Below are positions 1,442 to 14,073 of a stretch of DNA of 48,288 bases, one piece after another. Both the position numbers and the translations under genes were made by a program. Position 1 is the stretch's first letter. Each line of letters starts with the position of its first letter. This stretch comes from a plasmid. The notes beneath the pieces were generated by a model. The model was given only the letters and a program-made list of their open reading frames with translations. It did not search any database and was not told the origin of the DNA. The stretch lies in sequence record NZ_CP009216.1, one strand, 5' to 3'.

Positions 1442-1618
1442 ATGGCTGCAACCTTGCTCACTCGACAGCAGGCCGCGGACATTGTCGGCTGCAATGTCCG
1501 CACGATTGACCGGCGTATCCGGTCAGGCGACCTACCGGCCCGACGCTCAGGAAGGATGGTGCGTATCGACCCGGCAGACCTCGACAGGATGTTCAGCGAC
1601 CCGAAACGCTGGGCCTAG
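1442..1618 (+). CDS. xis: excisionase-like / MerR-type HTH DNA-binding protein (58 aa)
   Basis: GGAGAAAGGA RBS 10 nt upstream of the ATG. QQAADIVGCNVRTIDRRIRSGDLPARRSGRMVRIDPADL is a typical Xis/HTH_17 pattern. It is below the 60-aa track cutoff. Its stop overlaps the repressor stop (CTAG). Confidence 0.6.
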   Translation: MAATLLTRQQAADIVGCNVRTIDRRIRSGDLPARRSGRMVRIDPADLDRMFSDPKRWA

Positions 1619-1971: not shown

Positions 1972-1992
1972 GGGTTTTAGCGTATCGCACTA

Positions 1993-2030
1993 GGTTTGAC
2001 TTTTTTACAAACTGTGTACTAGAGTGCATA
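1993..2030 (+). promoter_or_regulatory. early rightward promoter/operator box A (TTTGACTTTTTTACAAACTGTGTACTAGAGT), with GTGTACT/AGTACAC and AGAGTGC(A/G)TAC repeats nearby
   Basis: TTGACT -35 element with TAGAGT (TAnnnT) about 19 bp downstream, in an AT-rich island of a 65% GC genome. It is paralogous to boxes at 5918 and 11935. Confidence 0.45.
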
Positions 2031-2056
2031 CCAGTACACACCGCAGAGTGCGTACA

Positions 2057-2072
2057 CCGGGCTGCAACCCGG
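2057..2072 (+). promoter_or_regulatory. CTGCAA-loop hairpin copy 1 (CCGGG-CTGCAA-CCCGG); a degenerate second copy lies at 2091-2104
   Basis: Member of the 8-copy hairpin family upstream of GGAGAAAGGA RBSs. Confidence 0.5.
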
Positions 2073-2143
2073 CAAAACGAAGGCCCGGCTGGCGCTGCAA
2101 CACCAACCGGGCAAAGACGCTCACGGAGAAAGGAATTCAGACC

Positions 2144-2755
2144 ATGAGCACCTCTAATCCTAACCACCCCGCCACACAGGGGCAACTAACCAAAAACGAG
2201 CGCGCAGCACGCCTCATCAAGCAGAAGTTCGTGCTCGACATGCTGTACGCCGTCCACAAAGACGAAACCGCCGAGCTCGCCGCGCAGTACGAACCCGGCG
2301 ACAAGGCCGAAATCAAGAACGACAACGGCGTGAAGATTGGCACCGTGTCCATGTCCACCCCGAACAAGAAGGCGGTGCCGGACGATGATTCCGTGCTGCT
2401 GGGCTACGCCGTCGAGCACGGCCACGAGGTCGAGGACATGCTGCCGGCCAACGGCACACCGGAAGCCGCGGAAATCGTGAAGCTGGTCGAGGCCGCAGGC
2501 CGCGAAGACCTGCTGGTGCCGTCCGTGACCGCAGAGGTGGAGAAGGAAGTCTGCCAGGAGGTTCTGAAGGGCTGGGAGTTCAGCGGGGGCAAGGAGCTGC
2601 CGTTGGGCTGGGAGATTCAGGACGCCTCGAGCCCGCGATTCACAGTGGCGAAGGGGCGCAGCGCGCAGGCGAAGGCCGCGTTCGAGCGCGAGATGGAACC
2701 GATTAAGGACGCGCTGGCGCAGTCAGCGTTCCGCGAGATTGAGGAGGGCAAGTAA
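2144..2755 (+). CDS. hypothetical early protein (203 aa), first gene of the rightward operon
   Basis: ATG preceded by GGAGAAAGGA. The longer track ORF 2024..2755 has no RBS at its upstream start. Confidence 0.7.
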   Translation: MSTSNPNHPATQGQLTKNERAARLIKQKFVLDMLYAVHKDETAELAAQYEPGDKAEIKNDNGVKIGTVSMSTPNKKAVPDDDSVLLGYAVEHGHEVEDMLPANGTPEAAEIVKLVEAAGREDLLVPSVTAEVEKEVCQEVLKGWEFSGGKELPLGWEIQDASSPRFTVAKGRSAQAKAAFEREMEPIKDALAQSAFREIEEGK

Positions 2756-2757
2756 CA

Positions 2758-3789
2758 ATGACCATCACCACTAGGAAACCCACCGGGCAGACCTCATGGC
2801 CGTTTATCCTCCTCGCCGGCGTCGAGGGTGGAGGTAAAACTTGGGCCGCTGTCGAAGCAACCGGCATGGAATCGGTCGACAGGGCATTCTTCATCGAGCT
2901 TGGCGAGGGCATGGCCGATGAATACGGGCAGGTTCCGGGTGCTGACTTTGAAATCATCGAGCATGACGGCACCGTGGGGATGATTCGTGAGGCGATTGCG
3001 TGGGCGTCGGCGCACCCCGCTGCTGAAGGCAAGAACAACATGCTCATCTTCGATTCGCTCACCGAATTGTGGGAGCTGATCACGGAGAATGCGCAGGCCG
3101 AGGCAAACCGGCGCGCCACCCGCAAGGGGCGCAAGATTCCCGAGGGTGGCATTCGTATTGACATGGATCTGTGGAACCGGGCTGGCGACACCTGGGAGGG
3201 GGTGATGGGCCAGCTGCGTCGATTCCCGGGTGTGGTGATCGGCACCGCCCGCCTGGAGAAGGTCACGCTTATGGACGATGAGGGCAGGCCGACGAAGGAG
3301 AAGGACTGGAAGATTCAGGCGCAGAAGCGCTTGCCGTACCGGGTGCAGGTGATTGTGCAGGCCCGTCAACCCCGCACCTGGACAATGACGAAGATCGCTA
3401 CCACGGTTCCGGCGTTGCAGCTGCAGCCCGGGCAGGAGCGGACGTTCAACGACTTCTCCGTGGTGAAGCTTTTGGAGACGATGGGGGTGGGGGCGAATAC
3501 CGCGCCGGCGACGTTCCGCGAGGCGGTGCAGGACGATTCACTAGCCGATAATCCACAGCCGAAGCAGAAGCCGCAGCAGGAGGCGACGGCAGAGCAGCTG
3601 GCGGAGTTCGCTCGCAAGGCTACCGAGCAGTCCGACGAGGCGCTGAAGAAGGGGCTGGTGTACTACCAGCGCATGAAGGACACGCAGCGGGTGGAGATTG
3701 TGCAAGCGGAGATTAGCCACCGGGCGCAGCGCAACGTGCAAGACCAACTCGACGGGGAGGTGGTTGAGGGTGAGCTTGTCGAAGCCTAG
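2758..3789 (+). CDS. RecA-like NTPase (AAA_24 / Sak4-like recombination ATPase)
   Basis: Walker A ILLAGVEGGGKTWAA, a Walker B-like hydrophobic-D/E stretch, and an acidic C-terminus. The position is typical for phage recombination genes. Confidence 0.65.
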   Translation: MTITTRKPTGQTSWPFILLAGVEGGGKTWAAVEATGMESVDRAFFIELGEGMADEYGQVPGADFEIIEHDGTVGMIREAIAWASAHPAAEGKNNMLIFDSLTELWELITENAQAEANRRATRKGRKIPEGGIRIDMDLWNRAGDTWEGVMGQLRRFPGVVIGTARLEKVTLMDDEGRPTKEKDWKIQAQKRLPYRVQVIVQARQPRTWTMTKIATTVPALQLQPGQERTFNDFSVVKLLETMGVGANTAPATFREAVQDDSLADNPQPKQKPQQEATAEQLAEFARKATEQSDEALKKGLVYYQRMKDTQRVEIVQAEISHRAQRNVQDQLDGEVVEGELVEA

Positions 3790-3967
3790 CCTGCGCGCCC
3801 TTAGCTGGCGTGACCGCCAGGCGGTGCGGGTTATCGATTGGTGCATTACCCACTTGCCGTCGCGGGAGCTGTCCGAGGCCATTACGGAGGCGTTGAGCGC
3901 GGGGACAGTGCAGGTGCTCCTAAGGCACCTGCAGGAGTGGGAACGGCGCGCCAGGCCAAACACCTAG
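3770..3967 (+). CDS. hypothetical small protein (65 aa), GTG start overlapping the upstream stop
   Basis: In-frame GTG inside track ORF 3698..3967. The upstream part of that ORF overlaps the ATPase gene. Confidence 0.4.
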   Translation: MSLSKPSLRALSWRDRQAVRVIDWCITHLPSRELSEAITEALSAGTVQVLLRHLQEWERRARPNT

Positions 3968-3969
3968 AC

Positions 3970-3983
3970 GGGGCTGCAACCCC
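3970..3983 (+). promoter_or_regulatory. CTGCAA-loop hairpin copy 2 (GGGG-CTGCAA-CCCC)
   Basis: Followed by GGAGAAAGGA at 3997 and the ATG at 4019. Confidence 0.5.
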
Positions 3984-4018
3984 AATTTTGAAGCACGGAG
4001 AAAGGAAAAGCACGGACG

Positions 4019-4402
4019 ATGAAGCGTTCCTACATGAAGCGCAAACCCGCGAAGAACGGGCGGGTGCCGGAGGAAGTGTACGCGGCGGTGATGATGCGCA
4101 ACGGGGGCCGGTGTGAGGTCGGATTCCCCGGTGTCTGCACCGGGCGGGCGGAGGAGTTTCACCACCGCCAGTCGCGGGGGGCGTCGCGCAACCCGCACAC
4201 CATCGGGAATGGTTGCGCGGCGTGCCACGCCTGCCACGACTACCTGACGCACCGCTCCCCGCAGGCGGGGCGCGACGTGGGGGCCGTGGTGTCGCGCCAC
4301 TACACCGGCGACCCGGCGTATAAGCCGATGAAAGTACCGGGCCGGGGCTGGGTGTACCTCACCCCGGGCGGTGGCTACGAGAAAGCCGAGGGGGTGCAGT
4401 AA
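4019..4402 (+). CDS. HNH-family endonuclease
   Basis: Cys/His pattern CEVG..C...EFHHRQSRG..RNPH...NGCAACHACH, consistent with an HNH/zinc-ribbon nuclease. Confidence 0.6.
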   Translation: MKRSYMKRKPAKNGRVPEEVYAAVMMRNGGRCEVGFPGVCTGRAEEFHHRQSRGASRNPHTIGNGCAACHACHDYLTHRSPQAGRDVGAVVSRHYTGDPAYKPMKVPGRGWVYLTPGGGYEKAEGVQ

Positions 4403-4623
4403 TGAGGCAGGTAGGTATACCCGCTGACTTGTCGGCCATGCCCCCACGGGCGTTGAAGGTGTACGCGGTGCTGGCCGCGAATCGGTGGCCCCAAGGGTTG
4501 ACGGTGAATCAGGTATCGGGTCTGACCGGGTTGACGTGGCGCACGGTGGATACCGCGTTGGAGGAGCTACGCGCAGCCGGCTACCTGGACGAGCACAACC
4601 AGCCGGTGGGAGGTGCTGCGTAG
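4402..4623 (+). CDS. winged-HTH DNA-binding protein (73 aa)
   Basis: LTVNQVSGLTGLTWRTVDTALEELRAAGYL. It is paralogous in fold to the N-terminus of the next gene. TAATG start overlap. Confidence 0.55.
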   Translation: MRQVGIPADLSAMPPRALKVYAVLAANRWPQGLTVNQVSGLTGLTWRTVDTALEELRAAGYLDEHNQPVGGAA

Positions 4624-5475
4624 GTGGCGATTTATCGTGACGGCTCCATTGACGAGAACTGGGCGACGATTCCCAACGCCCTGTTTCGTTCCGGGTTCCC
4701 GCTGCGTGTGGTCGCGGTGCTGGGGAACCTGCTCACGCACCGGCCTGACTTCCCAGTGACGGTGAAGCTCATGGCCGAGCAGCTCGGTGTGACCCCGAAG
4801 ACGGTCACGCAAGCGATCAATGACTTGGAGGAGCTGGGGTTGGTTGAGCGTGTCCCGGTTCCTGGGGAGCCTGGCAAGTTTGGGCGGAATGACTACCGGC
4901 TGCGTGAGCAGCGTTTGGTGACGTGGCAACCGGAGGTAAAAAATACCGACGGTGAGGGGGAGCCGGAGGTAAAAATTACCCACGGGCCGGAGGTAAAAAT
5001 TACCCACGGGCCGGAGGTAAAAAATACCTACATAGAAGACCAAGATAAAACACTAGGTAGAACACCAACTTCCCCCCAAGCCCCCCAAGGGGGGCAGGGG
5101 GAGCTGGCCGTCCCGGTGCCGAGCCTCGCGGAGGACTTCGCGGACTGGTACGCGACCTATCCGCGGAAGGTGGGGAAGAAGGACGCGGAGAGGGCGTACA
5201 AGCGGGCCCGCAAAGACGGGGCGACCCGGGAGGAGCTGCTGGCCGGTGTCGAGCGTTCGGTGCGTTCCTGGCGCGTCGAGGGGCGCAGCAAGGACAAGCT
5301 GCCGTACCCGGCCACCTGGTTGAACCAGGGGCGCTGGGAGGACGAGGAAACGCTCGGCGCGGACGTGGGGCAGCGCGGCGATTATCAGCCAACGGCGAAT
5401 GATGTGGCGCAGCAGATGATTCAGCGCATGCAGCAGCAGCGCCAGGGCAACGAGTGGAAGGAGCTTGAGCGGTGA
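4624..5475 (+). CDS. replication initiator / replisome-organizer-like protein with N-terminal wHTH and internal iterons
   Basis: N-terminal wHTH (VKLMAEQLGVTPKTVTQAINDLEELGLVERV). The middle region encodes PEVK(N/I)T repeats from DNA iterons. C-terminal WYATYPRKVGKKDAERAYKRA...YPATWLNQGRWEDEE is typical of phage DnaD/primase-associated C-terminal domains. Confidence 0.6.
   Translation: MAIYRDGSIDENWATIPNALFRSGFPLRVVAVLGNLLTHRPDFPVTVKLMAEQLGVTPKTVTQAINDLEELGLVERVPVPGEPGKFGRNDYRLREQRLVTWQPEVKNTDGEGEPEVKITHGPEVKITHGPEVKNTYIEDQDKTLGRTPTSPQAPQGGQGELAVPVPSLAEDFADWYATYPRKVGKKDAERAYKRARKDGATREELLAGVERSVRSWRVEGRSKDKLPYPATWLNQGRWEDEETLGADVGQRGDYQPTANDVAQQMIQRMQQQRQGNEWKELER
4927..5025 (+). repeat. four 18-bp direct repeats CCGGAGGTAAAAA(T/A)TACC (iterons; candidate origin of replication) inside the initiator gene
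   Basis: Copies at 4927, 4960, 4984 and 5008 with spacings of 33/24/24 bp. They form an AT-rich core inside a GC-rich gene. Confidence 0.6.
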
Positions 5476-5909
5476 CGCCCGAGGAGAAGATTGAGCTTGC
5501 CGGCAACGTGATTACCTACGGCAAGGCGCTGGCACCTGACCGGTTCCCGCGCCCCACGGAGCAGGTGGTGGCCGTGTGGGCCGACGTGCTCGGGTCTATC
5601 AGCGTGCCGAAGGGCGTGTGGCCGGAGGCGGTGCGTGTGTGGGCCGTGGAGATTGCGGGGGAGCGGATGTGTACCCCGCGGGAGCTGAAGCAGGCTGCGC
5701 GGGCTGTGCTGGCGCGGTGGGAATCCGAGCCGGTGAAGCGTGAGCTGCTGGCTGCGCACCGTGAGGCGCGGCGGGTGCAGCGTGACCGGGAGCTGTCGGA
5801 GGGCCGGTTTGGTGAGGTGCGTGGGCACGCAAGGCCGGTGCTGGAATCGCGGCCTGTGGTGTCGGGTGCGGTGTTGGACGCGGTGAAGGATGTTGTAAAG
5901 CGTGTTTGA
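5472..5909 (+). CDS. hypothetical protein (145 aa), GTG start overlapping the upstream stop
   Basis: ORF track entry. It is translationally coupled to the initiator gene. Confidence 0.55.
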   Translation: MTPEEKIELAGNVITYGKALAPDRFPRPTEQVVAVWADVLGSISVPKGVWPEAVRVWAVEIAGERMCTPRELKQAARAVLARWESEPVKRELLAAHREARRVQRDRELSEGRFGEVRGHARPVLESRPVVSGAVLDAVKDVVKRV

Positions 5910-5917
5910 CCTGTACG

Positions 5918-5948
5918 TTTGACATTATTACAAACTATGGAATAGGAT
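5918..5948 (+). promoter_or_regulatory. promoter/operator box B (TTTGACATTATTACAAACTATGGAATAGGAT), preceded by a GTTTGAC direct repeat
   Basis: TTGACA -35 and TAGGAT -10-like element about 18 bp apart. It is paralogous to boxes A and C. Confidence 0.4.
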
Positions 5949-5966
5949 TAGGGCAACAACGAAAGA

Positions 5967-5980
5967 GGGGCTGCAACCCC
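5967..5980 (+). promoter_or_regulatory. CTGCAA-loop hairpin copy 3 (GGGG-CTGCAA-CCCC)
   Basis: Located 16 nt upstream of the ATG at 5996, with an AGAAAGGA RBS between. Confidence 0.5.
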
Positions 5981-5995
5981 AGAAAGGACACCGCG

Positions 5996-6211
5996 ATGAA
6001 AACCACCGCCGACAACCTCACCGCACAGAACATCGTCGACAAGCTCGAAACCGAGATGGCCATGCAGAACGGTTGGGAGTTCAGCACCACCCTGAAGGAA
6101 TCCCTCGAAGACACCGTCCAAGAGCTTATGTACGCCGACGGCTCAGCCCTCCCTGCGTTCCTCCGCGACCTGGCCTACGCCCTCGACAACCTGGCCCTCG
6201 AGCTCGACTAA
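5996..6211 (+). CDS. hypothetical small acidic protein (71 aa)
   Basis: ATG with RBS. The track ORF 5906..6211 extends upstream without an RBS. Confidence 0.6.
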   Translation: MKTTADNLTAQNIVDKLETEMAMQNGWEFSTTLKESLEDTVQELMYADGSALPAFLRDLAYALDNLALELD

Positions 6212-6258
6212 CCGCAACCGCCAGCCTCCGGGCCGGCAATCAGCCCGACCAGCAGGCA

Positions 6259-6306
6259 GGGGAGTGCGAGCCTCCCCACGGGCACTAGGGGCACCCGCCC
6301 CGCACC
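6259..6306 (+). promoter_or_regulatory. intergenic GC hairpin element A (GGGGAG-tgcgagc-CTCCCC, then ACGGGCAC...TAGGGGCACCCGCCCC)
   Basis: Paralogous to elements at 12228, 7605 and 6965. It is terminator-like or a processing-site candidate. Confidence 0.4.
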
Positions 6307-6311
6307 AAGAC

Positions 6312-6325
6312 GGCGCTGCAACGCC
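6312..6325 (+). promoter_or_regulatory. CTGCAA-loop hairpin copy 4 (GGCG-CTGCAA-CGCC)
   Basis: Located 18 nt upstream of the ATG at 6343. Confidence 0.5.
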
Positions 6326-6342
6326 GAGGAAGGAACACAACG

Positions 6343-6627
6343 ATGGACATGCTGCTCGAACGCGCACCCCACATCGCAAAGCACTGGCGGAGGGTGGGTG
6401 ACCACCTCGCGTACGAGAACCTCACCGCGACCCTCGACTTCGACCCGGGGTGCCACGCCATCACGTTGCGCAACGAGGACAACGGGAACACCGAAACGAT
6501 CCGCGTCATGACCGTGCGCAGCGTCGGGGCAGTCCTGCAGACGGCGCGCCTCGCCTACGACCTGCTGGCCGGCCCCGAGGCTCCGCGTGACCCCGAGGTG
6601 GACACGCTCGACGGGTGGGAGCGGTAG
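6343..6627 (+). CDS. hypothetical protein (94 aa)
   Basis: ORF track entry with an RBS. Confidence 0.6.
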   Translation: MDMLLERAPHIAKHWRRVGDHLAYENLTATLDFDPGCHAITLRNEDNGNTETIRVMTVRSVGAVLQTARLAYDLLAGPEAPRDPEVDTLDGWER

Positions 6628-6848
6628 TGAACAGCAAAGCGCAGGAAGCCGACCGGGTGCGCATGGAGCGCGCCCTGCTCGGTGCCGGCATGGACGCGAA
6701 GCGGGCGTTGGAGAGCGCCGCCCGGGTAGCTCCGTACGACGAGCGACTGCGGGCATGGGAGGCGCTGGCAGACGCGGCGTCCCGGGCGAACCAGGCCCTC
6801 GCCGGGTACATGACCGAGTACGGGCTGATGGGGAAGGAGGGCGAGTGA
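6627..6848 (+). CDS. hypothetical protein (73 aa), GTG start overlapping the upstream TAG
   Basis: In-frame part of track ORF 6615..6848. Confidence 0.45.
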   Translation: MNSKAQEADRVRMERALLGAGMDAKRALESAARVAPYDERLRAWEALADAASRANQALAGYMTEYGLMGKEGE

Positions 6849-6964
6849 TGGAGGCTGCAATGCAGGTCGAGTTCTGGAACGCGGTGCTCGACGTGGCGTG
6901 GGTGCTGCTGCCGCAGGAGTGCCTGAACGCCCTGGCGTACAACTAGCGCGGGTGGAACCCTCTC

Positions 6965-6991
6965 CGGTTCGAGGCCGGGGCGCGCACGAGG
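6965..6991 (+). promoter_or_regulatory. intergenic GC hairpin element D (CCGG-ttcgagg-CCGG, then GGCGCGCACGAGG)
   Basis: Weaker member of the hairpin+CGGGCAC family. Confidence 0.3.
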
Positions 6992-7016
6992 TGGCAACAC
7001 CGCCACCACTACTAGA

Positions 7017-7032
7017 CCGGGCTGCAACCCGG
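7017..7032 (+). promoter_or_regulatory. CTGCAA-loop hairpin copy 5 (CCGGG-CTGCAA-CCCGG)
   Basis: Located 18 nt upstream of the ATG at 7050. Confidence 0.5.
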
Positions 7033-7049
7033 AGGAAGGGGACACCACC

Positions 7050-7502
7050 ATGTCCAAGAAGCCAGAATCCGCCCCCATGTCGGAGTACGCCGGCGCAACG
7101 CTAGACGAGCTGCCGAAGACCAACCCGCCCCGCTCATACGACGACGTGAAGCCCTACTGGGGCAATGTTGAGGGCGCGCAGCTGTTCACGGTGAACCAGC
7201 TGGTGCTGGAAACTCCGGAGCTGCTCGACCTGTGGAAGACGCTGGTGGCTGCAGCACACGAGAACCCGCTTGCCGAGGTGGACGGAACAACCATTCGCCG
7301 TGTGGCCGACGGCGACGAGATTAACCGCCAGATTCGGGAGAAGCGGTCCCGCTACGACCAAGAGCGCGAGGCGTTCCACCGACTGATCAACGGCGAGGTC
7401 AAGTACACCGTCTACCCCTCCACCACCAGCTACTACATGGAGCGGGAGAACATCGGATGGGATGAGGACTGGGTGCAGGAGAATTACCCCTCCCAGTCCT
7501 GA
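7050..7502 (+). CDS. hypothetical protein (150 aa)
   Basis: ORF track entry with an RBS. Confidence 0.65.
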   Translation: MSKKPESAPMSEYAGATLDELPKTNPPRSYDDVKPYWGNVEGAQLFTVNQLVLETPELLDLWKTLVAAAHENPLAEVDGTTIRRVADGDEINRQIREKRSRYDQEREAFHRLINGEVKYTVYPSTTSYYMERENIGWDEDWVQENYPSQS

Positions 7503-7604
7503 CCGCCACCGGAGCCGGGCGATACTGCGCCTCGTGCCGACGGCTGGCACACCACACAATCGAATAGGTAGCCCGCGCCGGGCCCGCGCCCTTCACCGGG
7601 TGCG

Positions 7605-7652
7605 CTGCGGTTCAACCCCGCAGGCGGGCACGCAGGGGCGGTGGTGCGTTTT
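7605..7652 (+). promoter_or_regulatory. intergenic GC hairpin element C (CTGCGG-ttcaacc-CCGCAG, then GCGGGCAC GCAGGGG ... TTTT), tRNA T-arm-like
   Basis: A 6-bp stem plus TTCAACC 7-nt loop followed by the conserved CGGGCAC/CAGGG motif and a T tract. It lies in a 293-bp non-coding gap. Confidence 0.4.
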
Positions 7653-7766
7653 GGCGTACTTCAGCACCGCGCAAGGGCGTACCCGCTCACGGGCAATGCG
7701 ACGGCACTATTCCCACCGTCGCGGGAGCGGCACTGCGACCCTGCGCCCCTCACCAACGTCACAAGA

Positions 7767-7780
7767 CCGGCTGCAACCGG
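7767..7780 (+). promoter_or_regulatory. CTGCAA-loop hairpin copy 6 (CCGG-CTGCAA-CCGG)
   Basis: Located 16 nt upstream of the ATG at 7796. Confidence 0.5.
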
Positions 7781-7795
7781 AGAAAGGACACCACA

Positions 7796-7999
7796 ATGAA
7801 ACTGCCCACCTTCACGGCCCTGGGCAACCTCGAAGGCGCACTCACGGGCGCGCTCGAGGAATGCTACGAGGCGCTGCACAGCTACCAAGACGCCGGCCTC
7901 GACAAGCCGTACGTCCACGCGAAGCTGAACCAAGCGGTCGCGGAACTGCGCGAGGCACAAAGCTACCTCCGCGCCTTCCCGGGGGCACCGTCGGCATGA
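7796..7999 (+). CDS. hypothetical protein (67 aa)
   Basis: ORF track entry. The long ORF 7462..8316 in another frame is R/P-rich and spurious upstream of 7996. Confidence 0.6.
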   Translation: MKLPTFTALGNLEGALTGALEECYEALHSYQDAGLDKPYVHAKLNQAVAELREAQSYLRAFPGAPSA

Positions 8000-8316
8000 T
8001 GGGCACGCAAGACCCGCTGTGGGGCGAAACGCACCCGGCAGAAGCCGCCTACTACGCCAACATTGCTGTGCACCGCGGCTGGCACGTCGCAGCAGACCGG
8101 GCTATGGGCTACCTGGCGAACACCGGGCGTGAGTTCACCGCCGACGATTTACGCCGCCTCCTCGACCAGGCCGGCGACCCCACAACCCCGAACGCATACG
8201 GAGGCCTCCTCATGGCCTGGTCGCGCCGCGGGATTATCCGCAAGACCGGATACCGCTGCTCGACGCAGCCGAAGCGCCACGGAGGGGTGAACGCCGTATG
8301 GGTAGGCACCAAGTAG
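7996..8316 (+). CDS. hypothetical protein (106 aa), ATGA start/stop overlap
   Basis: C-terminal part of track ORF 7462..8316, starting at ATGATG. Confidence 0.55.
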   Translation: MMGTQDPLWGETHPAEAAYYANIAVHRGWHVAADRAMGYLANTGREFTADDLRRLLDQAGDPTTPNAYGGLLMAWSRRGIIRKTGYRCSTQPKRHGGVNAVWVGTK

Positions 8317-8477
8317 GGCACTGCCAGTACAGCCGCTGCACGGGGTTCATAGACCCCCACGACCGGCTAGGAGCGTACTTCGGGCTGTGCCCAACGCACG
8401 CCCGAGACGCGGAGACGAAACTGAAACTCAACCGAGACGAATTCAACGCAAGGAACAGGAAACATGGCACTTCCTAA
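8298..8477 (+). CDS. possible small Cys-containing protein (59 aa)
   Basis: ATG with CQYSRC...CPTH spacing. It bridges the gap to SSB and is below the track cutoff. Confidence 0.25.
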
Positions 8478-8961
8478 CATCAACATCGAGGGCGGAACCC
8501 TGGTCACAGACCCGGAGCTGCGCTACACCCCTTCGGGCGCTGCGGTGGCGAACTTCCGCGTCGCTGCCAACAGCCGCCGGTTCAACAAGGAGACGAATCA
8601 GTGGGAGGGCGGCGACACCACGTTCCTCACCTGCAACATCTGGCGGGAGGCCGCGGAGAACGTGGCCAACAGCCTGCAGAAGGGCATGCGGGTGAACGTC
8701 ACCGGCGAGCTGCAGCAGCGCTCCTACCAGACGAAGGAGGGGGAGCAGCGCACCGTGTTTGAGGTGAACGTGCGCGAGGTGGCTCCGTCGCTGAAGTTCG
8801 CCACCGCGCAGGTGAACCGCAACCAGTCGAATGGCGGCGGGGGTCAGCAGCAGGGTGGCTGGGGGCAGAAGAGCGGCCAGACGCCGCAGAATGACCCGTG
8901 GGGCGGCGCGACCGGCGACACGGGCGGGTTCGGCGGCGGCGACCCGGAGCCGCCGTTCTAG
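8464..8961 (+). CDS. ssb: single-stranded DNA-binding protein
   Basis: OB-fold N-terminus, Gly/Gln-rich linker and a C-terminal DPEPPF acidic tail. Confidence 0.9.
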
Positions 8962-9021
8962 GAACGCTCGCCGGGTAAGGTAACGGCGGGAACACAGAAA
9001 ACAACAAGGGAGACGGAACCC

Positions 9022-9441
9022 ATGAATAAGAAAATTGCAGCTTTGGCCGCGGCCACCGCGCTCACCCTCACCGCGTGCGGCGACACCTCCGACGAGGACG
9101 CAGAGCCAGCCACCAGCACCTACGAGTACAAAGACCCAGTAGATGAACAGGCGAAACCTACCCATGATTGGCTCATGGAGCAGGGTGCGAAGTCTGTAGG
9201 GCTGTCAAACGATACATTCCGCAGCGTCGTTATTTTGTCTTGCGGGTACGCGGAACAGGAACAGTCAGAGTCCCTTGAGACAATCCGCGCCAAGGGGGAA
9301 TCTGCAATTCGTGCCCAGGTGAAGGACGTACCGGAGGATAAGGTGACCCCGGCGTTCTTAGCAGCTACCGCTACGGGTTGCCCTCACCTTATTCAAGGGC
9401 AGGGCGTGAATGGTTTGAAGCTAGTTCTTGCGGGGCAGTAG
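9022..9441 (+). CDS. secreted lipoprotein (signal peptide + lipobox LTAC), low-GC moron
   Basis: MNKKIAALAAATALTLTACG. The gene is clearly lower in GC (about 52%), with A/T-ending codons. Confidence 0.7.
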   Translation: MNKKIAALAAATALTLTACGDTSDEDAEPATSTYEYKDPVDEQAKPTHDWLMEQGAKSVGLSNDTFRSVVILSCGYAEQEQSESLETIRAKGESAIRAQVKDVPEDKVTPAFLAATATGCPHLIQGQGVNGLKLVLAGQ

Positions 9442-9641
9442 TGGACAGTGAGCATGACGAGCTGTTGGCCGCTGCCGTTGAGGCGCACCAGGACTACGAA
9501 GGCGCGGTGGAGGCTGCTAAGGCTGCACGCCGTTTGGAGTTCCAGCGAGCCGTAGACGGTGGAGTGAGCCGTGGGCAGATTGCGCGCCGGTTGGGTCGTT
9601 CAACAGCGTGGGTGAGCCGGATTGTTTCTGGCGACCGCTGA
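9441..9641 (+). CDS. small HTH DNA-binding protein (66 aa), GTG start
   Basis: C-terminal HTH VSRGQIARRLGRSTAWVSRIV. Overlaps the lipoprotein stop. Confidence 0.45.
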   Translation: MDSEHDELLAAAVEAHQDYEGAVEAAKAARRLEFQRAVDGGVSRGQIARRLGRSTAWVSRIVSGDR

Positions 9642-9644
9642 CCA

Positions 9645-9673
9645 TTGACAAAATGGCAAGGGTCGGGTAAGTT
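9645..9673 (+). promoter_or_regulatory. strong sigma-70-like promoter TTGACA-17-TAAGTT
   Basis: Near-consensus hexamers with 17-bp spacing, upstream of the antirepressor gene. Confidence 0.5.
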
Positions 9674-9676
9674 AAA

Positions 9677-9716
9677 GGGCACTAGGTCACTTAGACCTGG
9701 TGCCCGATATTTTTGG
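9677..9716 (+). terminator. 29-bp palindrome GGGCACTAGGTC-actta-GACCTGGTGCCC followed by ATATTTTTGG (terminator/attenuator or operator)
   Basis: A 12-bp stem with 1 mismatch plus a T tract, located immediately after the promoter -10. A further hairpin follows at 9718-9745, and an RBS-sequestering hairpin CAACTaataaggAGTTG at 9754-9770. Confidence 0.5.
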
Positions 9717-9774
9717 GCCACGGCGGTGCTACCAACACCCCGTGGCGTGGACTCAACTAATAAGGAGTTGAATC

Positions 9775-10620
9775 ATGGGTCAGTTTGTCATACCCGCAGG
9801 GGCAGAACAATCCCCCACCCCTTTTGACGTGTATCGCCAGGAGCGCGAGGACGGCTCCGAGTTTTGGAGCGCCCGCGACCTCGCCCAACTCATGGGCTAC
9901 CGCAAGTGGCAGAACTTCGAGAACGCACTGAACCGCGCCATTAAGGCAGCGCACAACCAAAAAATGGACGTTACCAGCCTTTTTATCCGATCTAGTAAAA
10001 AGACCGCGGGCCGTCCACAAGAGGACTACGAGTTAACCCGGTTCGCGGCGTACCTCGTCGCCATGAACGGCGACCCTAACAAGCCGGAAGTCGCGTCCGC
10101 GCAGGCATACTTCGCCACCCGCACCCGCCAGGCCGAAACGCAGCAACCCGCACAACTCACGGACGAGGAACTACTCTCCCGTGCCCTCATGGTGGCCAAC
10201 TCCAAGATGGAGCGCCTGGAGGCCGAGAAGGCCGAAGCGGTGGAACTCTCCGAGGCTGCAATGGCGCGTGCCCACGTCGCGGAAGCCGAAGCGGACGAGG
10301 CGCGCCCCAAGGCAGAGGCGTTCGACAGTTTCATGCGAACCGACGGCACCTACTACATGGGTGCAGTAGCGAAAATGCTGGGCATGGGGCAAAACGAGTT
10401 GTTCCGCAGGCTACGGAAGGAACGAGTGCTTATCCCGTCGGGGCACCTGTACAACACCCCGTACCGGCAGTATGAGCGCTACTTTCTGGTTCGTCCGCAC
10501 AAGTATGTTAACGCGGACGGGCGGGAGTTCTTGAAGCACACAACGTACGTGAAGCCGGCGGGGGTTGAGTTTATCCGACGACGGCTGGGGGTTGAGGCTC
10601 CGTTCGTTTCCGTGTCGTAG
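9775..10620 (+). CDS. phage antirepressor (Bro-N/DinD-like N-terminal domain + KilA-C C-terminal domain)
   Basis: N-terminal FWSARDLAQLMGYRKWQNFENALNRAIKAAHNQ (Bro-N/DinD signature). C-terminal MGAVAKMLGMGQNELFRRLRKERVL...NTPYRQYERYFLV (KilA-C). Confidence 0.7.
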   Translation: MGQFVIPAGAEQSPTPFDVYRQEREDGSEFWSARDLAQLMGYRKWQNFENALNRAIKAAHNQKMDVTSLFIRSSKKTAGRPQEDYELTRFAAYLVAMNGDPNKPEVASAQAYFATRTRQAETQQPAQLTDEELLSRALMVANSKMERLEAEKAEAVELSEAAMARAHVAEAEADEARPKAEAFDSFMRTDGTYYMGAVAKMLGMGQNELFRRLRKERVLIPSGHLYNTPYRQYERYFLVRPHKYVNADGREFLKHTTYVKPAGVEFIRRRLGVEAPFVSVS

Positions 10621-10771
10621 TTGGTTTCACGGAGAAGGGGAGTTTTGGGGTAGTGCTGCAACGCTATCCCCGGCCATGTAATTAGAACGTGTGTTCGTGT
10701 ACGTCGCAAATGTGTTCTACCATTGACGGCACCGAGCCGACCGCATAACCACCCGGAGCAGACTTCCTAAC

Positions 10772-10951
10772 ATGATTGAGACAACAGCCCTCACCCCGCC
10801 TGGTGCGCCCTGCAAAGTCACCAGGGCGCACGACCCGAAGGACACCTTCACCGCCTACGAAATAGAGGTCAACGGCCAAACCATCGAGCTAGAACCCTCC
10901 CACGTCGCGGAGCTCTCCCGCGTGCTCACCCTCATTGCGGGTGGGAACTGA
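10772..10951 (+). CDS. possible small protein (59 aa)
   Basis: ATG with a weak GGAG. It is below the track cutoff. The overlapping - strand ORF 10855..11943 is R/P-rich and spurious. Confidence 0.3.
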   Translation: MIETTALTPPGAPCKVTRAHDPKDTFTAYEIEVNGQTIELEPSHVAELSRVLTLIAGGN

Positions 10952-10984
10952 AACCGCTCGCAATACACACCCGATGGTGTTAGT

Positions 10985-11557
10985 GTGGCCGATGTGGAAG
11001 GCGCGAAATGCACATACCAAGACCGGGAGCTGTTTACCAACCCGGCTGGCCGTGACGCACCATCGACAGTGCGTGCGATACAGATTTGCGAAGAGTGCCC
11101 CATCATCAACCAGTGCGCGAAGCAGGCGCTGACAGCCGGCTCAAGTATCGACTTCAGCAACCAACACCCCGCGGTCGGTGTGATCCAGGCCGGGGTGTAC
11201 TGCGACGGCTCGCAGCGCGCAGCTATGGAGCTCGCGGCCCGGGCGGGGGAGCTTCCCCCTGCCGTCGAGGTGACGCCGCGGGCGAAGGCAGGGGACAGGT
11301 GCAAAAGCTGCGGCACGCCAATGGTGCGGTGGACGCGTGACCGTGTGCCGGACGGGTACGCAATGCACCGGGGGCGGGGGTTCTGCACGAACTGCCGTAA
11401 GGCGTACAACGAGGAGTTGGCTCGGGCCCGGGCTAATGGTGAGGTACGGGTGGGGCTGCGGAAGCAGGTTGACCGGAAGCGCCACTCGGCCCCGCCCCGC
11501 CGTGACCGCGAGGTGGTTATCCAGTTCTCGTTGTTTGAGCGGGAGGCGCTGGCGTGA
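10985..11557 (+). CDS. whiB: WhiB-like Fe-S transcription factor with an extra C-terminal zinc ribbon
   Basis: C-x22-ICEECPIINQCAKQAL (CxxC-x5-C) WhiB signature, and a C-terminal CKSCG...CTNC. Confidence 0.7.
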   Translation: MADVEGAKCTYQDRELFTNPAGRDAPSTVRAIQICEECPIINQCAKQALTAGSSIDFSNQHPAVGVIQAGVYCDGSQRAAMELAARAGELPPAVEVTPRAKAGDRCKSCGTPMVRWTRDRVPDGYAMHRGRGFCTNCRKAYNEELARARANGEVRVGLRKQVDRKRHSAPPRRDREVVIQFSLFEREALA

Positions 11558-11940
11558 CGCAGTGGGACTTGAAGTTGCCGTGGGTGAAGCCGCCGCTGTC
11601 GCTCAATGACCGCGAGCATTGGGCTCCTAGGGCGAAGAAGCAGAAGGCGGTGCGGGAGGCGTCGGCGCTGCTGGCTCGGCAGGCGGGTATCCCGCGGTTG
11701 GGGACGGCGAAGGTGCGGCTGGTGTGGTTGGTGGCTGACCGGCGTCGGCGTGACCGGGAGAACATCACTGCGACGCTGAAGCCTGCGATTGACGGGCTGG
11801 TGGACGCGGGTGTTGTTGAGGATGACTGCTGGTGGATTGTGACTGAATCGTCGTGTGCGATTTCGTTGGTAGAGAAGGGGTGTGAGGGGGTTTACCTGCA
11901 GGTTTTGGGTGAGCCGGAGGGCGTTTCGGTTTCCCTTTGA
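11554..11940 (+). CDS. rusA: RusA-like Holliday-junction resolvase
   Basis: RRDRENITATLKPAIDGLVDAGVVEDD matches the RusA D-x-D-N...K...D...DD pattern. GTGA overlap. Confidence 0.6.
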   Translation: MTQWDLKLPWVKPPLSLNDREHWAPRAKKQKAVREASALLARQAGIPRLGTAKVRLVWLVADRRRRDRENITATLKPAIDGLVDAGVVEDDCWWIVTESSCAISLVEKGCEGVYLQVLGEPEGVSVSL

Positions 11941-11966
11941 CATTATGACAAAGTGTGTAATAAACT
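11935..11966 (+). promoter_or_regulatory. promoter/operator box C (TTTGACATTATGACAAAGTGTGTAATAAACT)
   Basis: TTGACA -35 and TAAACT -10-like element. It is a 17-bp quasi-palindrome, paralogous to boxes A and B. Confidence 0.4.
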
Positions 11967-11988
11967 AGGGGTACAAACAAAGAGCAGA

Positions 11989-12002
11989 GGGGCTGCAACC
12001 CC
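11989..12002 (+). promoter_or_regulatory. CTGCAA-loop hairpin copy 7 (GGGG-CTGCAA-CCCC)
   Basis: Located 15 nt upstream of the ATG at 12017. Confidence 0.5.
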
Positions 12003-12016
12003 AGAAAGGACACAAG

Positions 12017-12211
12017 ATGGCCACCTACGCCACCACCGCCGACTACATCGAGCAGAACATCACCCCGGGCCTCGGAGATGTCGAGCTCACCAGCGAGCAA
12101 GCGCAGGAAGTCGCCCACCGCATGACCGAATGGAACGAGGACGGCCAGCTCGTGGAGCGCGAGGGCATGGACTTCTGGGACGTCGTAGCCGACGTCCGCG
12201 GCGACAACTAG
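12017..12211 (+). CDS. hypothetical acidic protein (64 aa)
   Basis: ORF track entry with an RBS. Confidence 0.6.
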   Translation: MATYATTADYIEQNITPGLGDVELTSEQAQEVAHRMTEWNEDGQLVEREGMDFWDVVADVRGDN

Positions 12212-12227
12212 CCCGACAAGGCAGGCA

Positions 12228-12262
12228 GGCGGGTTCAAGCCCCCGCCACGGGCACCAGGGCC
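12228..12262 (+). promoter_or_regulatory. intergenic GC hairpin element B (GGCGGG-ttcaagc-CCCGCC, then ACGGGCAC CAGGGCC)
   Basis: Closest paralog of elements A and C. Confidence 0.4.
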
Positions 12263-12287
12263 AACCGGCCCGCACAACCACATAGAC

Positions 12288-12301
12288 CGCGCTGCAACGC
12301 G
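12288..12301 (+). promoter_or_regulatory. CTGCAA-loop hairpin copy 8 (CGCG-CTGCAA-CGCG)
   Basis: Located 18 nt upstream of the ATG at 12319. Confidence 0.5.
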
Positions 12302-12318
12302 GAGAAAGGAACCCCGTC

Positions 12319-12504
12319 ATGTACCACGGGAACAACGAAGGCCTACGCGCCCTCGACATGGCAGAACAACGCCTCAAAGAAGCCCGCACCACCGCCACCC
12401 CAGCGGAACTGCCCGGCCTCAACCTCGCGCTGAACATCGTCCGCGACACCGCCGACGATGTGGCGCCCGCCCGCTCCCTCCACGACATCCTGCAGGGGGC
12501 CTAG
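12319..12504 (+). CDS. hypothetical protein (61 aa)
   Basis: ORF track entry with an RBS. Confidence 0.55.
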   Translation: MYHGNNEGLRALDMAEQRLKEARTTATPAELPGLNLALNIVRDTADDVAPARSLHDILQGA

Positions 12505-12506
12505 CC

Positions 12507-12677
12507 ATGACCAACCGCGCAATCATCTTCCTCATTATCGCGGCACTCGCTGCCCTGTCGGTGCCCGTAATCATGGCCGGCACCGGCGCAATCCTCCCGG
12601 TTGTTTACGCCCTCGCGGGCCTGCTGATTTACGAGCTGGCGACCGACCCCTACCGGAACGGAGACACCAATGAGTAA
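12507..12677 (+). CDS. small membrane protein (56 aa, 2 predicted TM)
   Basis: MTNRAIIFLIIAALAALSVPVIMAGTGAILPVVYALAGLLIY. It ends with the shared NGDTNE junction and is below the track cutoff. Confidence 0.4.
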   Translation: MTNRAIIFLIIAALAALSVPVIMAGTGAILPVVYALAGLLIYELATDPYRNGDTNE

Positions 12678-13200
12678 CGAAACCGCACGCCTAGCCCGTG
12701 AGTGGGCTGAATCCCGCAACCCGAACAGCCTGACGGGTGCCGCTAAGGCTGCTCGCGAGCACATCATGGCCACCACAGACCCACTGACGATGGCGGACGT
12801 GGAGTGGAACGACGAGAAGCACTACCTGGCCGGGGCTGTAGACGCTGATGGGCACGAGGTGGTCATGCTGGATAAATTGCATGGAAATATCCGTGTTTGC
12901 GACGTAGACCAGATGGGCCTGGGTCGCCCGGTGCTGGAATCCCCGAAGACCATCACCCCGAACGGGAAGCGGTACGAACTGCGCGAGGTAGGGGCGCCGG
13001 AAGAACCGACCCACCCGGAAACGCTGGTGACCGAGCAGGACTACGCGAACGCGCCCGCCGGAACCGTAGTCGCGGAATCCCATTACTTTGCATGGCAAAA
13101 GAACCAATTCGGAGCCTGGCGCAAGGTTAAAACCCGGCTTACCGACCGCGAGATGGCAGGCACGGAGCGGCAGGTGCTGCGCTGGGGGTGGGGCAAGTGA
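12670..13200 (+). CDS. hypothetical protein (176 aa)
   Basis: ORF track entry. ATG embedded in the junction cassette. Confidence 0.6.
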   Translation: MSNETARLAREWAESRNPNSLTGAAKAAREHIMATTDPLTMADVEWNDEKHYLAGAVDADGHEVVMLDKLHGNIRVCDVDQMGLGRPVLESPKTITPNGKRYELREVGAPEEPTHPETLVTEQDYANAPAGTVVAESHYFAWQKNQFGAWRKVKTRLTDREMAGTERQVLRWGWGK

Positions 13201-13529
13201 CCACCAACATCACCCCGGACAAGGCCCGCGAGCTACTCAACACGGCACGCCAAGAAGCGGGGGACGGGCAACGCCCCGTGACCGTGGCCGCGAAGTACGC
13301 CCCGCTGGTAGAAGCCACCCCCGCACTCGCGGAACTAGTCGCCAGCATGCACTACGAGTACGCGGTGCAGACAGGCATCGACGACAACGGTGATTACAGA
13401 CACATGTACGACTGGCGACCGACCCACGACGAAGCCGCTGAAATGGTGGCCCTACTCAAGTGCATGAACCCGGACATTAAAACCCGCATTGTCCGCCGCT
13501 TGGTGGGGGAGCCGGAGGTAGTCGAATGA
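13188..13529 (+). CDS. hypothetical protein (113 aa; alternative GTG start at 13197)
   Basis: ORF track entry. Confidence 0.55.
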   Translation: MGQVTTNITPDKARELLNTARQEAGDGQRPVTVAAKYAPLVEATPALAELVASMHYEYAVQTGIDDNGDYRHMYDWRPTHDEAAEMVALLKCMNPDIKTRIVRRLVGEPEVVE

Positions 13530-13876
13530 GCCGCTGGGAAGTGAAGCAGCACATCTACAGCAGGAAGTGGCTGGCCTACCCGAGGGACTACCACTCACTG
13601 CGACCGCAGACGGTGGTGGACGCGAGCGTGCCGTGTGTCCGCATGTTCCACCACCACGCCGAAGCCGTCGCCTACGCCGACCGCATGGCCCGCACCCGCG
13701 AAGTCGTGCTGCCCAGGAACCACGACCTAAAGAAGTCGGTACATAAAGACATTAACGGGGATTTGTACGCCAACTACAGCAGCGCCAACTACTGGGCGCA
13801 AGACAACTGGAACAAAGGCCCAAAACCCCTCGCACTCGCGCTACTCGCCCTCGCAGAACAGGAGGAACACACATGA
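13526..13876 (+). CDS. hypothetical protein (116 aa)
   Basis: ORF track entry. ATGA overlap. Confidence 0.6.
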   Translation: MSRWEVKQHIYSRKWLAYPRDYHSLRPQTVVDASVPCVRMFHHHAEAVAYADRMARTREVVLPRNHDLKKSVHKDINGDLYANYSSANYWAQDNWNKGPKPLALALLALAEQEEHT

Positions 13877-14073
13877 GCAGCACCTACGGCCCGTGGCAGC
13901 GGTGGTTCGCGTGGCGCCCCGTGGAAACCCGCAACCACGGCTGGCGCTGGCTCCGTGTGGTTGAACGCCGCCGCCACTACCCCGACCCCATGCTCCCGCC
14001 ACTAATCGGCGCGCAACCCGGCTGGGAATACCAACCAACCCCCAACAACCGACACGAAACCGAGGAAGCATGA
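13873..14073 (+). CDS. hypothetical Trp/Arg-rich protein (66 aa)
   Basis: ORF track entry, translationally coupled. Confidence 0.5.
   Translation: MSSTYGPWQRWFAWRPVETRNHGWRWLRVVERRRHYPDPMLPPLIGAQPGWEYQPTPNNRHETEEA

Follow-up and report, generated by a model that had tools for sequence, protein, structure and literature searches.

What are the GC-rich hairpins that recur between the small genes of the 48,288-nucleotide stretch of sequence record NZ_CP009216.1 (hereafter the window, to which all unprefixed positions refer), a prophage of Corynebacterium ureicelerivorans? A first-pass annotation had noted four of them, three (A, B and C) described as a 6-bp stem with a 7-nt loop followed by CGGGCAC and an AGGG motif and one (D) as a weaker copy, and had suggested that they serve as intrinsic (I-shaped) terminators, attenuators or RNA processing sites. 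Direct reading of the sequence finds all four on the + strand where they had been placed. The analysis presented here indicates that the elements very probably belong to a family of structured RNAs that mimic tRNA, and that they may function in early polycistronic mRNA as processing marks for RNase P, acting with RNase E or RNase Z, a reading to which we assign a probability of about 0.5.

Each element is a structured RNA of 42–60 nt on the coding strand, composed of an outer stem of 5–6 bp, a single-stranded linker, an inner 6-bp hairpin, 0–1 nt, the 3′ strand of the outer stem and an unpaired A-C. The outer stem, the D-loop-like linker, the tRNA-like character of the whole and its very wide distribution had all been missed earlier. 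The CGGGCAC and AGGG motifs are sited as first described, but within each CGGGCAC the letters CGGGC form the 3′ strand of the outer stem, and their partner GCCCG lies upstream, 11–12 nt ahead of the hairpin in A and B and farther away in C, and the ‘CAGGG’ combines the 3′ tail with the 5′ arm of a second hairpin (hairpin 2). In D both outer strands are altered, to GCGCG and CGCGC, which is a compensatory change. The elements consequently start upstream of the coordinates originally given, at 6243 (A), 12211 (B), 7571 (C) and 6946 (D), and the outer 5′ strand begins at or near the upstream stop codon; position +1 is the G of the stop codon TAG in D (6944–6946, ending a 32-aa open reading frame (ORF) at 6848–6946) and in B (12209–12211, ending ORF 12017–12211). 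The inner hairpin carries a tRNA-type T-loop, T-[T/G]-C-R-A, with a G-C closing pair. The description as a 6-bp stem with a 7-nt loop holds for A and C but not for B, the loop of which has 8 nt (TTCAAGCC), or 7 nt plus a bulged C.

Relatives carry equivalents of A’s hairpin 2 with other stems, one of them (L042) carries a counterpart of D with a CCCCGG stem, and both inner arms of C covary in five others (L032, L037, L040, L044 and L048). Element C, a long form with an extra arm in its linker, lies in the middle of a 290-nt spacer (7503–7795) that is kept in its entirety in relatives. This spacer also holds an upstream hairpin, GTGCCgacggctGGCAC, and a T-rich stretch 3′ of the tRNA-like part, and may represent a separate non-coding RNA with a tRNA-like domain.

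The support for a family comes from structure and not from the heptamer, as CGGGCAC alone is not enriched in the window (16 occurrences vs 22.35 expected). A structural scan of the window returned A, B and D on the + strand, together with C under a looser linker rule, and zero matches on the − strand. The IMG/VR database was searched with a pattern in which AGCCCG, five loop letters (TKCRA) and CGGGCAC were fixed and the inner stem was left unconstrained. This pattern matched at least 120 loci, and 69 of 96 distinct matches among those listed possess an inner stem, at least 5 bp long, that directly abuts the loop, compared with 9.7 % after shuffling of the 3′ segment; this count is an unbiased test of the structure. 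A model built from 13 distinct copies found through relatives (R1) recovered 96 copies, 80 of them distinct, in exactly 100 of the IMG/VR loci. Pairing in the 80 distinct copies reaches 99.1 %, a value that leans upward as the alignment was fitted to R1, and nine of the 11 pairs show changes on both sides, with 138 compensatory cells; none of 500 shuffles attained these pairing and compensation values, and slid controls were at most 59 % paired. An anchor-only listing agrees with both the pairing result and the inner-stem test. With our own structural scanner, the retrieved loci yielded 181 copies, of which 137 are distinct, and their block-shuffled counterparts yielded none, although the scanner imposed the five loop letters and a 3′ strand of 11–13 nt, for which its family counts cannot vouch. 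Outer stems among the scanner copies include GCCCG (78), GGGTG (9), GCCTG (8), GCGCG, GCCAG and CCCGG (4 each) and others. The earlier remark that the stems differ while pairing is kept is thus borne out by compensatory changes across both the family copies and the relatives.

A covariance model built from IMG/VR copies alone (R2), and hence from other phages, retrieved all four window elements (Table 1), from A with an E-value of 7e-11 down to C, while the next-best match in the window scored 15.3 bits (E 0.24). Its score for D marks that element as a full member rather than a weak copy. Single-sequence minimum free energy (MFE) z-scores, from −0.5 to −1.1, were not significant because the background is GC-rich, and were not used as evidence.

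The likeness to tRNA was first suspected from the loops, and it extends to several features that the search pattern did not impose. The window loops, read directly, conform to T-[T/G]-C-R-A; T, C and A of the loop are invariant in the 13-copy seed alignment found through relatives, and the G-C closing pair, which the pattern left free, occurs in 79 of 80 copies. In sequence terms, the loop and its closing pair are the T-loop signature G53, T54, C56, R57, A58 and C61. About one copy in three has G at loop position 2, the equivalent of tRNA position 55, and the identity of this base is coupled to the linker: T is accompanied by GG at linker positions 4 and 5 (81 and 85 of 93 copies), and G by AGC (33 of 44). 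A Fisher test of linker position 4 against loop position 2 gives p = 2e-22, which is not a true probability as the phage copies are related to one another. The contrasts within genomes are the stronger argument. In 14 contigs holding both loop types the rule is obeyed by 48 of 51 copies, and a single contig holds accAGCagcca with TGCAAGG and accGGCagtca with TTCGAGA; in the window, A combines AGC with TGC, and B and D combine GG with TTC.

On the 3′ side, the strand from loop to tail measures 11 nt in 90, 12 nt in 46 and 13 nt in one of the 137 distinct copies (only this split is an observation), compared with 12 nt in tRNA. N73 is A in 112 of the 137 copies (82 %) and N74 is C in 118 (86 %), so that the unpaired A-C tail sits where the discriminator and C74 would be, and CCA (as ACCA) is found in only 17 of 155 tails. 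The elements are a mimic of the tRNA ‘top half’, with an acceptor-like outer stem, a D-loop-like linker and a T-arm. In the geometry that we infer, the linker would act as a D-loop and form an elbow like that of G18:Ψ55 and G19:C56, the surface that in tRNA is read by RNase P, RNase Z, the ribosome and T-boxes (PMC4810234).

The elements are not tRNAs, being devoid of a D arm and of an anticodon arm. ARAGORN predicts no tRNA and no tmRNA gene in the window, the 4227 covariance models of Rfam 15 give no window match at their gathering thresholds, and at E ≤ 10 only chance-level Rfam matches appear in the window and in the 11-copy region of phage Cuke (see below). The G3:U70 pair typical of tmRNA is replaced by C-G at 3:70 in all window copies. 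The mascRNA-menRNA model (RF01684) finds no match in the window and reaches 17.2 bits, against a gathering score of 42.5, on a copy in a relative from Corynebacterium phocae (L030, 4353–4396). That copy, a short element, differs in its outer stem, GCCTA/TAGGC. Some 200 nt further, at 4605–4692, the same contig holds a full-size tRNA-like sequence with a perfect 7-bp acceptor stem, GCCCGTG/CACGGGC plus A, whose acceptor-stem sequence is that of the window elements; it receives no ARAGORN call and scores 22.9 bits, below threshold, with the Rfam tRNA-Sec model. All tRNA-related Rfam matches came from L030.

The genomic context is equally regular. A same-strand ORF ends 0–14 nt upstream of 68 % of 159 copies, compared with 11 % at random positions, and in 26 copies the last base of the stop codon is position +1. 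Copies invariably share the strand of the genes, and as many as 11 of them occur between successive small early genes. They are followed by A-C-N, a variable but stable hairpin, a ribosome-binding site (RBS) and a start codon, and the folding energy of the 40 nt downstream is −10.7 kcal/mol, compared with −7.1 kcal/mol for shuffled sequence. The order of gene end, element, CTGCAA-loop hairpin and RBS that had been pointed out in the window is indeed conserved, with the CTGCAA hairpin about 140 nt farther on in the case of C. A terminator scan of 1500–14000 gave 19 terminator-like sites, none of which is A, B, C or D, and the tails of the elements (ACTAGGGG, ACCAGGGC, ACGCAGGG and ACGAGGTG) have no U-tract.

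Table 1. Positions of the elements, their parts and associated features in the window
Feature	Position	Strand	Sequence and remarks
Element A	6243..6285	+	Both stems in MFE fold; R1 65.2 bits, R2 62.1 bits
A outer stem	6243-6247 / 6279-6283		GCCCG / CGGGC
A linker	6248-6258		ACCAGCAGGCA; AGC = linker positions 4-6
A inner stem	6259-6264 / 6272-6277		GGGGAG / CTCCCC
A T-loop	6265-6271		TGCGAGC
A spacer and tail	6278; 6284, 6285		Spacer A; ‘discriminator’ A, C; CGGGCAC 6279-6285, then TAGGGG
Hairpin 2 of A	6288..6301	+	GGGGC 6288-6292 / ACCC / GCCCC 6297-6301; earlier ‘TAGGGG’ motif
CTGCAA hairpin after A	6312..6325	+	GGCG/CGCC; precedes RBS of ORF 6343-6627
Element D	6946..6987	+	Structural scan; R2 41.5 bits
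D outer stem	6946-6950 / 6981-6985		GCGCG / CGCGC
D linker			GGTGGAACCCT; GG = positions 4-5
D inner stem	6962-6967 / 6975-6980		CTCCGG / CCGGGG
D T-loop	6968-6974		TTCGAGG
D tail	6986, 6987		A, C; CGCGCAC then GAGG
Hairpin 2 of D	6990..7007	+	GGTGGC 6990-6995 / AACACC / GCCACC 7002-7007
CTGCAA hairpin after D	7017..7032	+	CCGGG/CCCGG; precedes RBS of ORF 7050-7502
Element C (long form, three-way junction)	7571..7631	+	MFE fold; R2 23.2 bits, E 0.006
C outer stem	7571-7576 / 7624-7629		GCCCGC / GCGGGC
C extra arm in linker	7585-7591 / 7598-7604		CGCGCCC / TTCACC / GGGTGCG
C T-arm	7605-7610 / 7618-7623		CTGCGG / TTCAACC / CCGCAG
C tail	7630, 7631		A, C; CGGGCAC 7625-7631, then GCAGGGG
CTGCAA hairpin after C	7767..7780	+	CCGG/CCGG; precedes RBS of ORF 7796-7999
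Element B	12211..12255	+	Structural scan; R1 67.8 bits, R2 50.1 bits
B outer stem	12211-12215 / 12249-12253		GCCCG / CGGGC
B linker			ACAAGGCAGGCA, 12 nt; GG = positions 5-6
B inner stem	12228-12233 / 12242-12247		GGCGGG / CCCGCC
B loop	12234-12241		TTCAAGCC
B spacer and tail	12248; 12254-12257		Spacer A; tail ACCA; CGGGCAC 12249-12255, then CAGGGC
Hairpin 2 of B	12258..12271	+	GGGCC 12258-12262 / AACC / GGCCC 12267-12271; earlier ‘CAGGGC’ motif
CTGCAA hairpin after B	12288..12301	+	CGCG/CGCG; precedes RBS of ORF 12319-12504
Promoter regions	1994-2025, 5917-5948, 11935-11966		−35 inside 17-bp near-palindrome TTTGAC(A/T)TTATNACAAA

Relatives of the prophage were found through a single protein. 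INPHARED contains no close relative (megablast returned nothing, and blastn the SSB gene only); the DUF7432 protein encoded at 7050–7502 retrieved no relatives from genome_contigs or viral_contigs and one identical Logan contig, and SSB led to 25 loci, none related across the region of interest. The pattern of CTGCAA hairpin plus RBS gave one true relative in IMG/VR (L003, truncated and without the element in the 9 kb covered) and one unrelated contig. In turn, 41 homologues of the protein encoded at 5472–5906 (38–79 % identity) led to syntenic prophage and phage contigs that carry the same elements, mostly starting exactly at the stop codon, with GCCCG taking the G of TAG. The genes ahead of the elements vary from phage to phage, in line with the expectation that relatives exchange different cargo genes between conserved elements, and pairing is maintained across their different inner stems (GGCGGG/CCCGCC, TGGAGG/CCTCCA, GGGAGG/CCTCCC, GACGGG/CCCGTC, CTGGGG/CCCCAG and CCGTGG/CCACGG).

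Carriers include phages of Mycobacterium, Gordonia and Corynebacterium as well as Streptomyces-type phages, and the element is annotated in none of the carrier phage records. Mycobacterium phage Cuke (contig L096, 100 % identity) has 11 copies between its small early genes, and LittleCherry, Bonamassa, Milcery and SWU2 have one copy each on the early strand, past gene 87 at the right end. The closest database relatives of another carrier, contig L151, are Streptomyces phages (22 % covered, 74 % identity), which encode Ocr-like anti-restriction genes in the matching region. In the Corynebacterium phage PSonyx (OR521085, 50802–50864; L173, 2001–2063) a copy with the outer stem GCCTG/CAGGC and an ACCA tail separates genes 92 and 91, and gene 91, just downstream, is annotated as an RtcB-like RNA ligase, a tRNA repair enzyme.

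No convincing copy was found in phiC31, D29 or Kampy. Phage L5 has a weak candidate in its 88–89 spacer (L175, 6423–6476, minus strand; record 50422–50475; R2 16.8 bits), which reads GCCCCG, a linker with GG, GAGGG TTCGACT CCCTC and CGGGGC. It lies 3′ of an unannotated small ORF and directly before the motif TTGACAGCCACC that recurs ahead of start codons there and that we take to be the stoperator of the L5 repressor. The abundant non-coding RNA at the right end of cluster A phages (L5, D29 and Kampy) maps between Pleft and gene 89, and a link to it was rejected, as Kampy and D29 lack a convincing copy and L5 has only this weak candidate. One contig of GC 0.42 (L066, IMGVR_UViG_3300045988_098729) holds a well-formed copy; its closest match is a human faecal phage contig and it has no actinobacterial phage match in INPHARED, so the family may extend past the phages of Actinobacteria. 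In one IMG/VR subfamily (L056, 700–790, and similar) a direct repeat, AAGCCCGCGC, flanks the element on both sides, its downstream copy being the 5′ arm of hairpin 2, which may reflect alternative pairing or the trace of an insertion.

The assignment of the window to C. ureicelerivorans follows from the protein encoded at 5472–5906, which has a 100 % identical counterpart in that species. Positions 1–24, GGTTCAATTCCCGGCGGCTCCACC, are identical to the 3′ end of the tmRNA gene that ARAGORN calls in the relative L048 (4244–4626, adjoining smpB); on this sequence match, the prophage is inserted in ssrA and 1–24 is its attL. The possibility that the elements are tRNA remnants of an att site was rejected, given several copies per genome, covarying stems and a real attL at 1–24. 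The attL is followed by an integrase gene (158–1384), a leftward repressor gene and then the rightward early region, within which all four elements lie on the gene strand (+). This region has three near-identical promoter/operator sites (1996, 5919 and 11937), with no others predicted, and the genes past A, D and B therefore rely on read-through. The 17-bp near-palindrome shared by the three promoters is probably the repressor operator, and a CTGCAA hairpin and then a small first gene lie downstream of each promoter.

Under the reading that we favour, the folded mimic would present the tRNA elbow and the stacked acceptor and T stems to the host tRNA-processing endonucleases. A cut by RNase P 5′ of position +1, for which this enzyme is the best candidate, would separate the upstream cistron and leave the downstream mRNA with a tRNA-like cap, paired throughout, at its 5′ end, ahead of hairpin 2 and the RBS. 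An mRNA capped in this way would be expected to resist RNase E and RNase J and to be shielded from 5′-end-dependent decay. A second cut after discriminator A73, by RNase E or, where CCA is absent, by RNase Z, might release a small tRNA-like RNA of about 42–45 nt. Early polycistronic transcripts might in this way be punctuated into units of defined stability, as by the t-elements and tRNAs of mitochondria. RNase P holds the elbow in a clamp and gauges the stacked helix. Its L15 loop forms base pairs with R73-C74, an interaction that would account for the conservation of the A-C tail; RNase E in mycobacteria cuts 5′ of C. According to one report (PMC10673834), more than half of the tRNAs of M. 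tuberculosis need CCA addition, and a CCA-less processing pathway is therefore active in the phylum.

Several points weigh against a role in processing. The cleavage step is one that we purely infer. The dimensions deviate from a 7-bp acceptor stem on a 5-bp T stem, in that the outer stem has 5–6 bp and the distance from loop to discriminator is mostly 11 nt, as the stack is in two thirds of copies, rather than the 12 of tRNA. Bacterial RNase P favours U at N-1, where the elements have A; the conserved C74 is unfavourable for RNase Z, and few tails have CCA. A cut between TA and G in the Corynebacterium group would remove the stop codon and yield non-stop mRNAs. No element is called by ARAGORN, and the Rfam tRNA and tmRNA models find no match in the window even at E ≤ 10. 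Published RNA-seq of cluster A phages mentions no such sites, and Kampy and D29 are also without convincing copies. RNA processing sites are nevertheless the one of the three functions originally proposed that fits the evidence best. The more far-reaching proposal, that undescribed and widespread minimal tRNA mimics constitute a phage ‘tRNA punctuation’, cut by RNase P with RNase E or Z and yielding small RNAs that are maybe decoys, is advanced tentatively and should be regarded as somewhat doubtful.

The first of the functions to have been considered, that of factor-independent (I-shaped) terminators or attenuators read through under a phage antiterminator, now appears highly improbable. It would account for the GC-rich hairpins and for the position of A and B, each after the first small gene past a promoter (5919 and 11937), as with tL1 and tR1 in lambda. 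Yet mycobacterial RNA polymerase needs a U-tract, which the elements lack, the terminator scan flagged none of them, and up to 11 copies stand between consecutive genes, with promoterless genes downstream; moreover, neither a T-loop with its G-C closing pair nor covariation between linker and loop would be required of a terminator. The early region of phiC31 is known for terminators without a U tail, but phiC31 has no copy of the element and the link was rejected. Equally little credence is given to a role at the level of DNA, as a recombination linker through which gene cassettes are exchanged, or as a small mobile repeat. Elements do border mosaic modules, relatives differ in the genes between them, and one IMG/VR subfamily has the flanking direct repeat described above. 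Copies in the same genome, however, vary in stem sequence with pairing kept and include G-U pairs, which are C-A mismatches on the other strand, and their orientation strictly follows the genes; the covariation reflects selection on a folded single strand and not on sequence identity.

Two further explanations accept the RNA fold and differ in what it is for. An uncleaved insulator or stabilizer, in which the fold and hairpin 2 block 3′–5′ exonucleases, entry of RNase J or E and loading of Rho in the untranslated gap, would suit operons of many small genes in which very stable GC-rich structures occupy nearly all of the gap from stop codon to RBS and the downstream 40 nt fold better than shuffled sequence. 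We consider it unlikely, as a plain hairpin would suffice and the T-loop letters, the G-C closing pair, the linker–loop covariation and the A-C tail would be left unexplained. Less likely still is a decoy for, or recruiter of, tRNA-binding factors that, within the mRNA or after release, titrates or redirects a protein early in infection; the CCA-adding enzyme, EF-Tu, T-arm modification enzymes, RtcB-type ligases and tRNA-targeting toxins or defence nucleases are candidate targets. The many copies expressed from early operons, the strong elbow mimicry, the PSonyx copy directly upstream of an RtcB-like ligase gene and the Ocr-like genes of the Streptomyces phages most similar to L151 would all agree with such a function. 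It needs no strict placement after a stop codon and before an RBS, however, and substrates of anticodon nucleases are not mimicked in the absence of an anticodon arm; no consistently co-occurring protein family turned up, although co-occurrence was not searched systematically.

The CTGCAA hairpins lie outside the tRNA-like unit and are found, on the + strand and 5–40 nt ahead of an RBS, at 2061, 2094, 3973, 5970, 6315, 7021, 7770, 10655, 11992 and 12291. Their loop is constant and their 4–5-bp stems covary, and GCTGCAAC occurs 16 times in the window vs 2.8 expected. They are present in all close relatives and in L003 and absent from L029–L031; among the copies from other phage groups listed with context, none has a CTGCAA hairpin ahead of the RBS, the insertion of such a hairpin at this place being a feature of the Corynebacterium group. 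They look like a protein-binding or boxB-like site.

Among the neighbouring genes, a Pfam scan of the small proteins flanking the elements was uninformative apart from DUF7432 and Ant. ORF 4624–5475 contains four direct repeats, CCGGAGGTAAAAAWTACC, at 4930, 4963, 4987 and 5011 (span 4930–5028), which are iteron-like and may mark a replication origin within an initiator gene. Between two ORFs, at 9645–9715, a promoter-like TTGACA...TAAGTT is directly followed by a strong terminator hairpin (9677–9705) and a T run, which may constitute a very small transcript or regulatory unit.

Full-text literature searches returned no description of the element family, although it may be listed, without a name, among the structured-RNA candidates that a 2023 survey drew from IMG/VR (PMC10690425). 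The use of a tRNA mimic as a processing signal is of a kind known from organelles, nuclei and RNA viruses, whereas a minimal, multi-copy tRNA-mimic family in phage operons appears to be new. If the proposal is correct, a new class of structured RNA is very common in the phages of Mycobacterium, Streptomyces, Gordonia and Corynebacterium and sits unannotated in thousands of sequenced genomes, including those of teaching-collection and therapeutic-candidate phages, and bacterial viruses borrow the tRNA-processing machinery for their mRNAs, as do mitochondria and some nuclear long non-coding RNAs. Such processing could explain how the many tiny early genes of one operon acquire individual expression levels, and makes a broad role of RNase P in bacterial mRNA processing testable. 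The elements also offer structural studies a natural minimal elbow mimic with built-in covariation (A:G for G:U at 18:55), and may potentially be used in actinobacterial expression design as portable parts that combine a cleavage mark with a protective 5′ structure.

Repeated structured elements between cistrons are known from phage T7, in which RNase III sites, each a long irregular duplex, separate the early genes and are cut by the host endonuclease to leave stabilizing hairpins; the difference lies in the fold and the enzyme, as the elements described here are a tRNA mimic. Their topology is that of the ‘top-half’ minihelices that serve as model substrates of RNase P, RNase Z and the CCA-adding enzyme, among them pAT1, an acceptor-stem/T-arm minihelix substrate reportedly described by McClain, Guerrier-Takada and Altman in 1987: in both, the acceptor stem stacks on a T stem-loop and runs out into a single-stranded 3′ tail that opens with a purine discriminator plus C. 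Minihelices are artificial, whereas the phage elements add a D-loop-like linker, have a 5–6-bp stem and mostly lack CCA. In animal mitochondria, where tRNA punctuation of transcripts is said to have been described by Ojala, Montoya and Attardi in 1981, tRNA-shaped units between cistrons likewise act as cleavage marks and stop codons may end up incomplete, but those units are functional tRNAs, while the phage elements, without an anticodon arm, cannot decode.

The tRNA-like domain of tmRNA and YrlA (PMC4201824) are bacterial or phage-associated mimics of acceptor, T-arm and elbow in which the D-loop analogue is reduced. The phage elements have neither the G3:U70 pair and tag reading frame of tmRNA nor the Ro-binding stem of YrlA, nor do they adjoin rsr as YrlA does. 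The mascRNA and menRNA of MALAT1 and MEN-β (RF01684) are embedded tRNA mimics that recruit RNase P and then RNase Z, which defines the end of the upstream RNA and frees a small tRNA-like RNA (PMC11693755); mascRNA differs in being eukaryotic, single-copy and full cloverleaf-like in fold. A close parallel is provided by the t-elements of plant mitochondria, whose T-arm motif is GGTTCRANYCC and at which RNase P and RNase Z cut at mRNA ends (Forner et al. 2007, PMC1920247). As in the phage elements, these are non-canonical tRNA-like folds that adjoin ORFs and combine a conserved T-arm motif with an acceptor-like stem; their ends coincide with mRNA 5′ or 3′ termini, and some cleavages yield mRNAs without a stop codon (PMC1920247). 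The same motif is matched exactly by B (GGTTCAAGCCC) and C (GGTTCAACCCC) and with one mismatch by D (GGTTCGAGGCC), A being a G55 variant. The phage elements, for which processing is a proposal, differ from t-elements in belonging to bacterial viruses rather than organelles, in being much smaller, with a linker of 11–12 nt in place of the D and anticodon arms, and in their number, as many copies occur in each genome, all in a fixed register with the stop codons that they follow.

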